From a virus: a stretch of DNA of 64,000 nucleotides. Each line of letters begins with the position of its first letter. The stretch's first letter is position 1. The translations under genes were made by a program, and so were the position numbers. This document shows positions 53,258-56,833 of this stretch, piece by piece. The stretch covers positions 20,981 to 84,980 of the IMG/VR virus record IMGVR_UViG_3300032235_001020; one strand, written 5' to 3'. The notes beneath the pieces were generated by a model that was given only the letters and a program-made list of their open reading frames with translations, had not been told where the DNA came from and made no database searches.

Positions 53258-54058
53258 TTAGTAACCGTAGCCGCCGCCATACGGTGCTTCGCTGCTGAGC
53301 GTTCCTTGAGATTGATCGCCCCCGCTGGCAACTCCTCTGAGCTTCCAATTCATCATCAGACGGCCAGTAGGCACCATGATGCCGGCGGCAACCCCGCGCA
53401 TAATCGAAAGAGTCAGGGTTGGCGTTGCAGTACCCCCTGCAGGGCCTTGCGCCTTCTTGATCACGCTGGGCCGAAGGAGGGCCCCCTCCAGTGGAGCACT
53501 GCCCCGGGCGGGCGCGATGACCTTGACCAGTGGAATACGCCCGCCGGGAACAAAGGCTCCCTGGGCGGCACCATTCAAGAGTGCGTACCGCCCGACGGAG
53601 ACCGTAATCGCAAAGGGAATGCGCTGCCACTGACTGCTGGCAACCGTGATGTAATAGGTCCCCGCTGGTAAGCCCAGCAGGTTTTCGTACGCTTCTGTGC
53701 CGTAGACGTCGCACTCGGTTGCGTAGCCGCTGGCATCCATCTGAATTGGCTTGCGCTCGCCATCGAGAATGCCAACACTGACGAACCGGTCGGTGCTGGC
53801 GCCGCTGGCGCGCTTGCGGACACTGAGCTCGACGCGTCGCGGCAGGGACACCTTGAAGAACAGAGTGTTGCTGCCGGCTTCTGATCCGATCTCACCAGCG
53901 AGATCCGCAACAAGGATGTCCGTCTCGCCGAGATCGCGAGATTTGCTGATGGAGTTGTACTTGACGTAGTACGGCCGAAGATACGATGGCAGCGTCGAGT
54001 CACTGCCGCCGTAGCTAGATCGAATGCTCTCGTAGGACTGGGTCTGGGATAGTGCCAT
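53258..54058 (-). CDS. Structural protein with PPC-like beta-sandwich
   Basis: LPAGTYYITVAS motif. Confidence 0.65.
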   Translation of the reverse strand: MALSQTQSYESIRSSYGGSDSTLPSYLRPYYVKYNSISKSRDLGETDILVADLAGEIGSEAGSNTLFFKVSLPRRVELSVRKRASGASTDRFVSVGILDGERKPIQMDASGYATECDVYGTEAYENLLGLPAGTYYITVASSQWQRIPFAITVSVGRYALLNGAAQGAFVPGGRIPLVKVIAPARGSAPLEGALLRPSVIKKAQGPAGGTATPTLTLSIMRGVAAGIMVPTGRLMMNWKLRGVASGGDQSQGTLSSEAPYGGGYGY

Positions 54059-54222
54059 CAGAGTTCATAGATGCGGCACTCTTCGGCCCAGGGGTTCTCG
54101 TGGCAGAAATTGAGGAACTTGCGCCGCATGCCGGAGTCCAGTGGATCGGCGACCTCATCCGGCCGCGCGCCGGTGTAGTCGGAGTCCAGCGTCTGGTCTT
54201 CGGGGGCTCCTTGCTGAGCCAT
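54058..54222 (-). CDS. cp12: Mini CP12-like protein, C-terminal motif only (absent from the ORF track)
   Basis: MAQQGAPEDQTLDSDYTGARPDEVADPLDSGMRRKFLNFCHENPWAEECRIYEL; the C-x8-C-R-I-Y-E end is the CP12 signature. Confidence 0.8.
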   Translation of the reverse strand: MAQQGAPEDQTLDSDYTGARPDEVADPLDSGMRRKFLNFCHENPWAEECRIYEL

Positions 54223-54228
54223 ATAATG

Positions 54229-54429
54229 CCCGCCAGGGATGACGCAATGCTACTCAATACGCGGATCCCGAATATGTGACAGCTATCCGGAATGCGAGTA
54301 CCAGGCGCCGCCGCACGCTGATCAGACGCACGGCGGTTCACTCACCAGCTCGGAGAAACGGCAAAAATCCGAGCTCCTGGAAAATAGACCCCTGCCGCCG
54401 TTCTTCTTCGGGGTCGCTACCGAAATAGC
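54229..54429 (-). ncRNA. Candidate ~200-nt structured RNA with kissing loops
   Basis: UUCG hairpin, six further helices, 9-bp loop-loop complementarity, TAGCGT -10 box 6 nt upstream. Confidence 0.6.
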
Positions 54430-54438
54430 AGAGTTACG

Positions 54439-54999
54439 CTAACGCCTCAGAGTTGGCAGCTTGCAGCGGGGAATGAGCTGCCTGAGGTCCTGAATGAGGT
54501 CATCTGCGTAGATGCCCTGAAACTCGAGGCGGCCTTTCTGCACCAATGACGGCAGGTAGCCAAGGCCCCGCACCCACTCCTGCAGATGCTGCGTTTCCTC
54601 GAGGTTGGCCCAGGAGCGTAAGACGACCTTGCGGCGCGAGGCGGTACCGGTGTCACACCACAAAGCAGCAAGACCCTGCATGCCGACGATCTGGAGGATC
54701 TCAGGCGTCAGGCGGCGCTCGTCTCTGAAGAAGAGCAGGTCATAGACGCGATACAGGTCAGGGCTATGGACGCGAATGCGCCGGTCGTCGTAGAAGCCAT
54801 CGGCCTGGATGATGTCCGAGACCGCCTCGAGCTTGCCGTCATGCGCCTTGTGGAGCATGCGCAGTTGGTGGTTCAAGTACGTCAGGTCGGTCTCCCGGCG
54901 CTTGATCTCGAGCCACGGCCGCTTCTTCACCCCCTTCAGGCCAATCGTCCCGCGTCCCAAGCAGTAACTCAGTGCGAGCGCTACGAATGAGGCTGACAT
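54439..54999 (-). CDS. LAGLIDADG-fold protein with degenerate motifs
   Basis: LALSYCLGRGTI and GLAALWCDTG helices at LAGLIDADG_2 spacing. Confidence 0.7.
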   Translation of the reverse strand: MSASFVALALSYCLGRGTIGLKGVKKRPWLEIKRRETDLTYLNHQLRMLHKAHDGKLEAVSDIIQADGFYDDRRIRVHSPDLYRVYDLLFFRDERRLTPEILQIVGMQGLAALWCDTGTASRRKVVLRSWANLEETQHLQEWVRGLGYLPSLVQKGRLEFQGIYADDLIQDLRQLIPRCKLPTLRR

Positions 55000-55609
55000 C
55001 CCAGACTTCCTCTTTGAATAGGTGAATGCGACTCGCCGGTGCGTAGGGCAGTAGGGCCTTGCGGATCTTGCTGGCCTCTCGCTTCTGAAAACGCAGGCGA
55101 GGCTGGATGTGGGTATCGGCCAGGGTTGCCTCGGCGCCGGTCAAGACGCCAATCCACTGGCAGACCCGCAGAGCCTCATCGAAGGATTTGCCGACCCGCG
55201 CCAGGTCGACATAGCCCTCTAGATGGGGGCGGGCCCCCTCAGCCCAGAGCCAGGCAGCAGCTTGAGCGCCGAGCATGTCGAGCGCGGTCTGGCTGATCTC
55301 ACGCTCGCCAGTTGGGTAGAGCAGGTTGTAGACAGGGCGAAGGCGGGTCGATGAAACCCGGAAGCGCAGCACCGACGTGCTCTTGCCGTTGGCGCGTGGC
55401 TTGGTTTTGTAGTGAACAATCTGCGCCTGTGTCGGCACAAATTGACGGAATTCGGCGACCTTCTCCTCGAGAAACGCGGACTCCGCTGCGCCGGCTGTCA
55501 GCGTGAGCTGGATATATCCCCCTCCAGGACTGCGATATGGCACCAGGCTGCCATCGGCGAGTAGCAAACTGAGCAGACCCCGGACGTCTGTGGCGTCCAA
55601 CTTTTTCAC
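54839..55609 (-). CDS. Double-motif LAGLIDADG endonuclease-like protein
   Basis: LLSLLLADGSL and AAAWLWAEGA; YNLLYPTGERE; start GTG 55609. Confidence 0.82.
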   Translation of the reverse strand: MKKLDATDVRGLLSLLLADGSLVPYRSPGGGYIQLTLTAGAAESAFLEEKVAEFRQFVPTQAQIVHYKTKPRANGKSTSVLRFRVSSTRLRPVYNLLYPTGEREISQTALDMLGAQAAAWLWAEGARPHLEGYVDLARVGKSFDEALRVCQWIGVLTGAEATLADTHIQPRLRFQKREASKIRKALLPYAPASRIHLFKEEVWDVSLIRSARTELLLGTRDDWPEGGEEAAVARDQAPGDRPDVLEPPTAHAPQGA

Positions 55610-55690
55610 ACTACGAGACTGTTTTATAGTAAGCCCCAGGAGGCGCCTTGCGTGCCTTCTCGCACACTTGTCGCTCGGACATTTCATCCC

Positions 55691-56833
55691 ATGTGGATTG
55701 ACAATGACTTTCCGAAGCTGCTAGGTGCCGAGCTTTATCGACCCCATCCCTCGTACATCGTGGAGATGGCGGTCGAGCCCGTGGTTGTGCACGACTTCGC
55801 CAAGCAACCCGGCCAGACTGTTCAGCTTGATCGCTACCGCTTCTGGGGTGCCCCTGGCACTAAGGACAGCCGTGAGCGCACTGCTGATCAGACTCTCGGC
55901 ACTGCATCTTCGCGCTCGATCGTGAAGGATAAGGTGCTGGTGAACCTCAAGGAGTACACCGGCCCCGCTGATCCGACCGATACTTCCGCCCCCTCCACCT
56001 TCAAGGTGGCCCGGGAAACCCTGCTGACTGCCCAGCGCCTGCTGCTGGACACCGGCAACCTGAATGTTTTCCACCAGTCGATCGGTTCGCTGACCCTGCT
56101 GGATGACTATCGCCGCTGGCGCGACCGCGTCTTCGCCGACGAGCTGTTCAAAGCCGAAGCCAACGGTCTGGCTGACAGCACCAAGGGTGGTTACTTCTAC
56201 CCCCTGAAGAAGGCCAAGGCAGCTTCTGCTCCCTTCCTGAGCTACACGGCTGGCGAGTCCGCCAAGTTCGATGTCAAGACCGACCTCCTCGAGGTCGTGA
56301 AGGACATGCGCAAGCGGAACGTCCCCACCTTCGCTGACGGTTACTACCGTTGCATCGCGGATCCCACCGCAATGATGCACCTGCGCCAGAACGACGCGTT
56401 CCGTGAGATCGCTCGTTACGCAGGCAACGGCATGGTCAACCCCATGCAGCCCGAACTGGCCCCCAACGCCAGCTTCTTCCGTGGCATGGGCCCCGCCTAT
56501 GGCCAGGCCGGCTTCGTCGCAGGTCAGCCTGTGATGCCCTCGGGCTTCCTCTTTGAGGGCGTCCGCTGGTTCGAGTCGACCAACCTTCCCGAGAAGTCAC
56601 TGCAAGTGACCATCGCCGACGCGTCGATCACCTCGACCGTCACCACTGCTGCCCCCATGCTGTTCTTCGGCCCTCAGGCCGTGGGCGTGGGCATCGGCGG
56701 CAACAACGCTCAGATCCTGCTGAATAACAACGACGATTTCAGTCGTTTTATCATCATGATTTGGTCGCTCTTCGCCGGTTTCGAGATCCTGAACAAGGAC
56801 TTCGTGACCGTGGCCTACTCGTTCGTGTACTGA
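55691..56833 (+). CDS. Major capsid protein (N4-gp56-like)
   Basis: MWIDNDFPKLLGAELYRPHP...QPGQTVQLDRY...FEGVRWFES; strongly biased codon usage; TATAGT at 55625-55630. Confidence 0.88.
   Translation: MWIDNDFPKLLGAELYRPHPSYIVEMAVEPVVVHDFAKQPGQTVQLDRYRFWGAPGTKDSRERTADQTLGTASSRSIVKDKVLVNLKEYTGPADPTDTSAPSTFKVARETLLTAQRLLLDTGNLNVFHQSIGSLTLLDDYRRWRDRVFADELFKAEANGLADSTKGGYFYPLKKAKAASAPFLSYTAGESAKFDVKTDLLEVVKDMRKRNVPTFADGYYRCIADPTAMMHLRQNDAFREIARYAGNGMVNPMQPELAPNASFFRGMGPAYGQAGFVAGQPVMPSGFLFEGVRWFESTNLPEKSLQVTIADASITSTVTTAAPMLFFGPQAVGVGIGGNNAQILLNNNDDFSRFIIMIWSLFAGFEILNKDFVTVAYSFVY

Follow-up and report, generated by a model that had tools for sequence, protein, structure and literature searches.

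The locus and the fold of the RNA

The element described here lies in an 84,980-bp virus record of IMG/VR (IMGVR_UViG_3300032235_001020) that carries direct terminal repeats; the window, the whole stretch of this record that was analysed, spans 64 kb, and all coordinates refer to it. On the minus strand, a 216-nt gap separates a LAGLIDADG_2-like open reading frame (ORF), upstream, from an ORF with a CP12 domain, downstream. The gap appears to hold the gene of a small structured RNA, in which one hairpin (A) precedes a three-way junction built from helix P and arms B and C, and in which the loops of A and B are complementary. The elements of the gap, in the direction of the minus strand, are:

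54436..54441, minus: -10-like box TAGCGT, whose TAG doubles as the stop codon of the upstream ORF (LAG186)
54416..54429, minus: 5′ hairpin GCUAU-UUCG-GUAGC, found only in the window's subclade (13 of 51 sequences)
54415-54300, minus: conserved core, 116 nt (about 130 nt when the subclade's 5′ hairpin is included)
54387..54415, minus: hairpin A, stem (G)ACCCC/GGGGU(C), 17-nt loop GAAGAAGAACGGCGGCA; 99.6% paired in the family
54395..54403, minus: kissing helix, loop-A strand GAACGGCGG, written GAACGGCG(G) in the loop–loop alignment
54376..54380, minus: helix P, 5′ strand CCAGG, closing the three-way junction; 98.0% paired
54347..54375, minus: hairpin B, stem AGCUCGG/CCGAGCU (strands 54375-54369 and 54353-54347), loop AUUUUUGCCGUUUCU
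54356..54364, minus: kissing helix, loop-B strand UUGCCGUUU, written (U)UGCCGUUU in the loop–loop alignment
54337..54346, minus: junction strand GGUGAGUGAA from arm B to arm C; two A residues and a GA are constant in the family
54308..54336, minus: hairpin C, 10-bp stem CCGCCGUGCG/CGUGCGGCGG (strands 54336-54327 and 54317-54308) with tandem U-G/G-U pairs
54325-54318, minus: palindrome CUGAUCAG in the 9-nt loop UCUGAUCAG of hairpin C
54301..54305, minus: helix P, 3′ strand CCUGG, partner of CCAGG
54251..54300, minus: variable 3′ stretch with the UACUC/GAGUA hairpin, about 14 to 60 nt long in homologues and outside the conserved core
54247..54252, minus: second -10-like box, TAGCAT, from which the downstream mRNA is probably transcribed

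All of these stems, the three-way junction and the loop–loop contact had been proposed at the same positions and on the same strand by an earlier sequence-only reading of this DNA. Hairpins A, B and C and helix P recur throughout the family of homologues described below. The other two hairpins on its list do not: the 5′ hairpin is present in 13 of 51 sequences, and UACUC/GAGUA falls in the variable stretch. The complementarity of loops A and B extends over nine pairs in the window and eight across the family.

The minimum-energy fold of the core consists of the same helices, hairpin A followed by the junction of P, B and C. That of the whole gap instead pairs the two gap ends with each other, an arrangement to which the comparative data give no support and which was rejected. 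The fold energy corresponds to a z-score of -0.75 for the 216-nt gap, -0.66 for the opposite strand and -1.45 for the 116-nt core; thermodynamics alone does not single out the region, and the decisive evidence is comparison.

Covariation among viral homologues

Homologues were assembled along three routes. A search with the pattern of loop A matched 85 viral contigs; these contigs and a set of five loci supplied the 19 distinct homologues that, with the window, form alignment A2. The capsid protein, an independent bait, led to at least 598 related viral contigs, of which the best 80 were kept. A covariance model built on the first, pattern-derived set matched 29 of these best 80 contigs, all at E ≤3.4e-10. 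Whole-record searches found the RNA as a single copy in the window's own record and in each of 8 out of 10 further records.

The 20 sequences of A2 are 99.0% paired, with compensatory change in 10 of 35 pairs and 0 of 500 shuffles equalling this; the capsid-fished set, 26 distinct sequences, is 98.1% paired, with 25 of 35 pairs compensatory. When the sets are pooled, 98.3% of 1769 cells in 51 distinct sequences are standard pairs and 29 of 35 pairs have changed on both sides, in related sequences that are not independent in such statistics; alignments A3 and A4 were fitted to the nested helices of the model, and loop A is invariant by construction in the 19 of 51 sequences that were fished with its pattern. 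The covariation score of the pooled set is 0.556, against 0.180 in shuffles (0/500 as high), and sliding the partners by 1–3 columns as a control lowers pairing to 39–46%. By helix, covarying pairs number five of five in A, four of five in P, seven of seven in B, nine of ten in C and four of eight in the kissing helix (n = 51).

The kissing helix lies outside the search model, so its pair count is independent of that model. All eight of its pairs form in all 51 sequences, with zero unpaired cells, and four of them have changed on both sides; the variable triplets are GGC/GCC, GAC/GUC, UAC/GUA, UGC/GCA, UAU/AUA and AGC/GCU. Two further pairs of this helix are invariant G-U pairs, and two more in stem C are nearly invariant; read from the other strand they would become A-C. 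The RNA is assigned to the minus strand because of these invariant G-U pairs, an argument that the sequence-only reading had already made. Two conserved runs are left unpaired, the purines GAAGAAG in loop A and the U residues in loop B, and may serve as tertiary contacts or as a binding face.

Promoter-like boxes and the ends of the RNA

A -10 box, TAGCGT, had been proposed from the window, where it is followed by six nucleotides and the 5′ hairpin. A TAnnnT box is indeed found upstream of the RNA in 51 of 51 sequences, compared with 5.2% at random positions in the same loci. It ends 4–8 nt before hairpin A in 38 sequences and 17–20 nt before it in the other 13, which are those bearing the extra 5′ hairpin. 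A scan with the sigma-70 consensus does not call TAGCGT, the -35 element being absent. In the 13 members, a GC-rich subclade, the sequence of the 5′ hairpin is nearly all different from one member to the next and the hairpin is always formed, as judged by eye and not by a formal pair count.

At the other end, most homologues have TAGCAT or a different TAnnnT after the RNA (by eye, uncounted), and many low-GC relatives have a U-rich run directly after helix P. Taken together, the comparison shows a compact fold that an 8–9-bp loop–loop helix holds together; the RNA is encoded on the minus strand, follows a conserved -10 box and is present once per genome.

The loop of arm C

Arm C ends in a loop whose sequence varies and whose self-complementarity is largely retained. 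Among 29 distinct C loops, 23 hold a Watson-Crick palindrome of at least four bases, 15 one of at least six, and five one of eight; shuffling the loops gives 11.0 (≥4) and 2.4 (≥6) palindromic loops, and 0 of 5000 shuffles reach the observed numbers. Five different central tetramers occupy the same loop position: GAUC (10), AGCU (6), GGCC (5), CAUG (1) and UUAA (1). The outer bases of the loop could extend the stem, and the central four are unable to pair with each other inside one hairpin. Because these four cannot self-pair, intermolecular pairing is the simplest reading at the level of RNA, and we infer that two copies of the RNA may pair loop to loop through arm C. The idea of a self-complementary loop for dimerisation, put forward from the window alone, is thereby strengthened by comparison.

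The pattern resembles the dimerisation initiation site of HIV-1, where a 9-nt loop carries a self-complementary core that varies by lineage and is always a palindrome. The likeness is one of design: arm C has no sequence or evolutionary relation to the HIV-1 site, and what is known of it is a sequence pattern.

Hairpin C is a near-perfect inverted repeat whose centre is always a 4–8-bp palindrome of the restriction-modification type, and the locus could on that account be a DNA-level element such as an operator, a replication or packaging site, or a methylation or restriction signal. Little credit can be given to this idea. The invariant G-U and U-G pairs of stem C and the kissing helix, and the frequent G-U intermediates elsewhere, are tolerated only in an RNA read from this strand; a promoter-like box stands at a fixed distance; and the closest known kin, described below, are a class of transcribed small RNAs (sRNAs).

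Genomic context and distribution

The genes flanking the RNA in the window are:

54839-55687, minus: longer LAGLIDADG-like ORF (LAG282), overlapping LAG186
54439..54999, minus: LAGLIDADG-like ORF (LAG186), neighbour upstream of the RNA, 186 aa; Pfam LAGLIDADG_2 E 0.0046, below threshold
54058..54222, minus: CP12-domain ORF, neighbour outside the RNA, 54 aa; Pfam CP12 24.7 bits, cut-off 22.7

The 48 capsid-adjacent RNA loci share an identical gene order: one strand holds the capsid gene, and the opposite strand carries LAG282, LAG186, the RNA, an optional CP12 gene, a 266-aa protein and a gp80-like head protein. By tblastn, CP12 lies downstream in 13 of the 29 capsid-fished and 14 of the 19 pattern-fished RNA-bearing loci. 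Where it is missing (L024, L030, L043 and others), other ORFs follow and the form of the RNA is the same.

This distribution bears on the proposal that the RNA is a riboswitch-like leader controlling CP12, in favour of which stands the position of the RNA in the window, immediately before the CP12 ORF. Besides the incomplete co-occurrence and the unchanged form of the RNA, there is no conserved expression platform pairing with the start region, and six related genomes carry the RNA elsewhere; control of CP12 is refuted as far as comparison can refute it. The start of the ORF that follows the RNA has a feature of its own. Its context, GGGCAUUAUAUG(G) (window 54219-54231), is constant though the ORF differs, being CP12-like in the window and another small ORF in L027, L028, L049 and L074; no Shine-Dalgarno sequence is found at this start in the window or in relatives.

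The six genomes just mentioned come from capsid relatives of about 80% identity and have a capsid flank that lacks the LAGLIDADG-like pair. Each of their whole records (6/6) has exactly one RNA copy elsewhere, far from the capsid gene and among unrelated neighbours (L250-L255). In L254 the last base of the RNA is 1609, and tRNA-Leu, one of three consecutive tRNAs, begins at 1610; in L252 the RNA is preceded, at a distance of 40 nt, by a tRNA-Ala. The converse case is provided by L181 and L188, which have the LAGLIDADG-like pair and sufficient flank and in which no RNA is found even with filters off. At L181 2880-3480 an AT-rich stretch and a CP12-like ORF stand in the RNA's place; here the RNA has been lost.

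Two proteins of LAGLIDADG type next to the RNA had also suggested a maturase-like ribonucleoprotein with the RNA as subunit or ligand; the proteins might equally be a domesticated regulator. In each of the 48 capsid-adjacent loci both are encoded in the interval from the RNA to the capsid gene, the end of the LAG186 ORF and the RNA's promoter overlap, LAG186 combines a degenerate first motif (LSYCLGKG) with a basic C-terminal tail, and many relatives have group I introns in the capsid gene. We consider the partnership improbable nonetheless, and an obligate one is not supported by the genomes above: the RNA is kept in 6/6 genomes without the capsid-side pair, where tblastn finds no homologue of either protein in the 3-kb loci around the RNA (L250-L255), and L181 and L188 have the pair and no RNA. 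The co-occurrence fits simple descent within one clade, bacteria without such proteins have RNAs of the same type (see below), and the window's own genome has no group I intron, those of the relatives being in the capsid gene, on the other strand.

The pair itself is well conserved. LAG282 retains the classic motif GLLLADGSL, its true start probably lying about 28 residues after the listed ORF start, and homologues of the pair, 38–96% identical and with the same overlap, occupy the RNA–capsid interval of every capsid-adjacent locus (48 of 48). On these sequences the pair looks like the product of long-term vertical inheritance and not like a mobile nuclease. A sequence search of solved structures with both proteins returned no match.

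The capsid gene of many relatives is cut into two to four pieces by group I introns, which match Rfam RF00028 at up to 87.5 bits. The split genes, on the strand opposite the RNA, include L016 4128-6371, L024 2913-4755 and L049 1348-4667, with further cases in L005, L027, L028, L030, L043, L062 and L090; by tblastn the breaks in these relatives fall near residues 61/62, 120/121, 152/154, 296/297 and 304/305. The capsid gene of the window (55652-56833) is unbroken, and RF00028 has no match in the window or in the whole of its own record.

Judged by this distribution, the RNA belongs to a large group of aquatic cyanophages and not to CP12, to the LAGLIDADG-like pair or to the capsid gene. Since it has its own -10 box, occurs in one copy and is found elsewhere in relatives, including in tRNA clusters, the RNA is best regarded as a stand-alone gene tied neither to CP12 nor to the pair.

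Relationship to CyVA-1

At gathering scores Rfam has no match anywhere in the window. Below that level, hairpin A aligns with positions 39-67 of the 77 positions of CyVA-1 (RF02965) at 23.1 bits, against a cut-off of 41.4, with E 0.003–0.014; hairpin B aligns weakly with positions 9-32 (10 bits, E 2.4). The window and five of the six relatives scanned score 21–28 bits against CyVA-1 (positions 38-68), and every other family in these scans has E above 4. The strong Rfam match that, by the sequence-only reading, would have removed the novelty is absent, and the RNA has kin in the database nonetheless.

The kinship was followed with a pattern scan of genomes, which found true CyVA-1 copies in Cyanobacteria and Acidobacteria. 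Many coding matches (a conserved membrane-protein motif on the other strand) were removed on inspection and by the condition that a B-type loop be close at hand; 28 of 72 loci were kept after filtering, and 26 of them enter the loop-position tally, L110 and L130 having only an upstream B′-type loop. Rfam identifies 14 of the 18 cellular loci scanned as CyVA-1, at 44–74 bits, and they have the same two loop types as the phage RNA.

The A-type hairpin loop is GAAGRAGAACGRCGUCA and the B-type, U-rich loop UUUUNGYCGUUU; the conserved CyVA-1 loop GAAGGAGAaCGACGUCA is matched by the window loop GAAGAAGAACGGCGGCA without a gap over model positions 45-61. The loops are complementary in both groups, over 8 bp in 51 of 51 phage sequences and compatibly at the variable position in 24 of 26 cellular ones, the cellular complementarity being an observation made here. 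The three-way-junction design and the size, near 80–120 nt, are shared as well.

The layout differs. In the CyVA-1 model a closing helix surrounds first the hairpin with the U-rich loop (GUUUUaCCGUUuug) and then the hairpin with the GAAGGAGAACGACGUCA loop, that is, B then A. In the phage RNA the B-type hairpin is 3′ of hairpin A, which lies outside and 5′ of the closing helix, and that helix holds B together with a third arm, C, which CyVA-1 lacks. Loop A reads GAAGAAG in the phages and not GAAGGAG, and the RNA is carried by phages whereas the cellular members of CyVA-1 are in Cyanobacteria and Acidobacteria. By its score and its architecture the phage RNA is outside the family, yet by its loops it is plainly kin: a rearranged relative of CyVA-1. 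The locus had been singled out as the best candidate for an undescribed system; this does not hold for a partial, sub-threshold relative of a catalogued family, and what is new here is the rearranged phage layout and the palindromic loop of arm C.

The name CyVA-1 presumably stands for Cyanobacteria, Verrucomicrobia and Acidobacteria. Rfam lists the family under the type 'Gene; sRNA', and it is mentioned once in the main text of the discovery paper (Weinberg et al. 2017, PMC5737381). Low-abundance CyVA-1 transcripts are reported from cyanobacteria of a halite community (PMC7002113). The literature search found no link between CyVA-1 and phages and none between cyanophages and a kissing loop; it did not extend to the supplements of the discovery paper, which may hold phage copies.

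Several features of the cellular loci may be recorded. A second B-type hairpin (loop UUUUUGYCGUUUCC, then CUUUG) is present in bacterial genomes 70–300 nt downstream of the Rfam CyVA-1 core, outside the model (for example L095 1255-1279, L102 3134-3158, L133 1356-1380 and L146 1351-1375); its loop, too, complements the A loop (compatible in 24 of 26 cases), and a longer cellular RNA may terminate at this hairpin. In distant cyanobacteria CyVA-1 is preceded on its own strand, at about 170 nt, by the end of a gene for a conserved hypothetical protein of 206–240 aa (L095, L104, L110, L114, L127, L130, L146, L159 and L164); this protein matches no Pfam or NCBIfam family, and the best 120 of its 564 relatives are all named only 'hypothetical protein'. 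A pterin-4a-carbinolamine dehydratase gene is convergent downstream of CyVA-1 in L099, L103, L104, L114 and the acidobacterial L116; the downstream gene of the cellular copies is not constant. The idea that loop A mimics a Shine-Dalgarno sequence was dropped by reasoning only: the 16S tail could pair with the cellular GAAGGAG, but the phage GAAGAAG brings in a mismatch. A loose likeness between the 3′ half of hairpin A and a cyanobacterial CRISPR repeat is given no weight here.

The relationship to CyVA-1 also bears on the suggestion that the RNA is a packaging or virion RNA which oligomerises on the prohead like the packaging RNA (pRNA) of phi29. That molecule likewise has about 120 nt, a three-way junction and loop–loop pairing that covaries between relatives, intermolecular pairing is conceivable here (A with B, C with C), and head genes are adjacent in the window. 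In phi29, different loops of neighbouring molecules pair on the portal, and such RNAs belong to phages without a nuclease-type terminase. The large terminase of the present genome is canonical, with ATPase and nuclease parts (phrog_38, residues 27-509, E 1.5e-69); CyVA-1 is the only Rfam family with a meaningful score; the RNA is far from the head genes in relatives; and the class occurs in bacteria too. A role in packaging is accordingly very improbable.

Interpretation

The explanation we favour, and hold to be probable though by no means certain, is that the minus strand carries a stand-alone small RNA gene, a rearrangement of the CyVA-1 class, whose product acts in trans and is likely a dimer. 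A -10-type promoter of its own, TAGCGT (54441-54436), would start transcription a few nucleotides ahead of the first hairpin. The transcript would fold into hairpin A and then a three-way junction in which helix P carries arms B and C, and pairing of the A and B loops over 8–9 bp would lock it into a compact knot. Two copies may join through their arm-C loops, as in retroviral dimerisation hairpins. The phage lineage would have kept the two loops of CyVA-1 and their complementarity and changed their order and the enclosing helix. The product would be a discrete, stable sRNA that binds a protein or another RNA in trans, and most likely replaces a host RNA of CyVA-1 type; its partner is probably shared with the cellular CyVA-1 RNAs.

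Several observations weigh against this explanation. We know of no member of the CyVA-1 class with an established activity, which leaves the phrase 'takes over the host role' empty so far. In two of the 26 cellular copies (L125 and L146) an A stands opposite a C at the covarying loop position. The record of L181, 91% complete, has no RNA copy elsewhere, and at E ≤0.1 there is none in the record of S-EIV1, a distant relative found through a capsid fragment and the only one in the phage database. As for dimerisation, the case for pairing between copies is read from the sequence; three 9-nt loops of the UCGCU type and three short loops (L250, L254 and L255) are not palindromic; and all five palindrome cores are typical restriction or methylation sites, so that their meaning may lie at the level of DNA. 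Finally, the GC-rich clade of the window has no U-tract or terminator after the RNA, and transcription may continue there into CP12 and the structural genes.

This missing terminator keeps alive the main rival, which we judge unlikely: a 5′ leader that acts in cis on the downstream operon of late or structural genes, namely CP12 and the genes of the 266-aa protein and the gp80-like head protein. The knot would then shield the message from RNases that depend on the 5′ end, or would modify RNA polymerase in the manner of phage antitermination RNAs. The promoter sets the 5′ end right at the hairpin, and in 48 of 48 capsid-adjacent loci the RNA heads the same string of co-oriented genes. Two unrelated viral contigs (L015 6326-6398 and L076 3846-3939) have a short two-hairpin version, A then B, just before a ribosome-binding site and ATG, scoring 34–41 bits with the covariance model built here. 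The leader reading is at odds with the second -10-like box between the RNA and the next ORF, with the U-rich runs after the RNA in many relatives, with the different downstream neighbour in six related genomes (one of them an abutting tRNA), and with the lack of a constant downstream gene next to cellular CyVA-1 copies.

The palindromic loops can also be combined with the A/B complementarity in another way, to which we attach a somewhat lower probability than to a leader. The A and B loops covary and need not pair within one molecule; if they paired between molecules while the C loops joined further copies, a self-assembling particle would result, serving as a scaffold or as a decoy for the host factor that binds CyVA-1. 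Such an assembly would recall the pRNA rings of phi29 and the recently described multimeric large RNAs of bacteria and phages.

In annotation, the CP12 gene and the LAGLIDADG pair should be treated as neighbours of the RNA and not as components of one system. At least 598 viral contigs match the capsid gene of the group, and the presence of one copy per genome with perfectly kept loop pairing suggests that the fold matters during infection. With its 116 nt, its five helices and what is probably a dimer contact, the RNA is a compact and well-defined object for experiments. If the C loop drives dimerisation, it would be a rare dimeric small RNA of bacteria or phages, and it would offer a route to the host partner of the CyVA-1 class.

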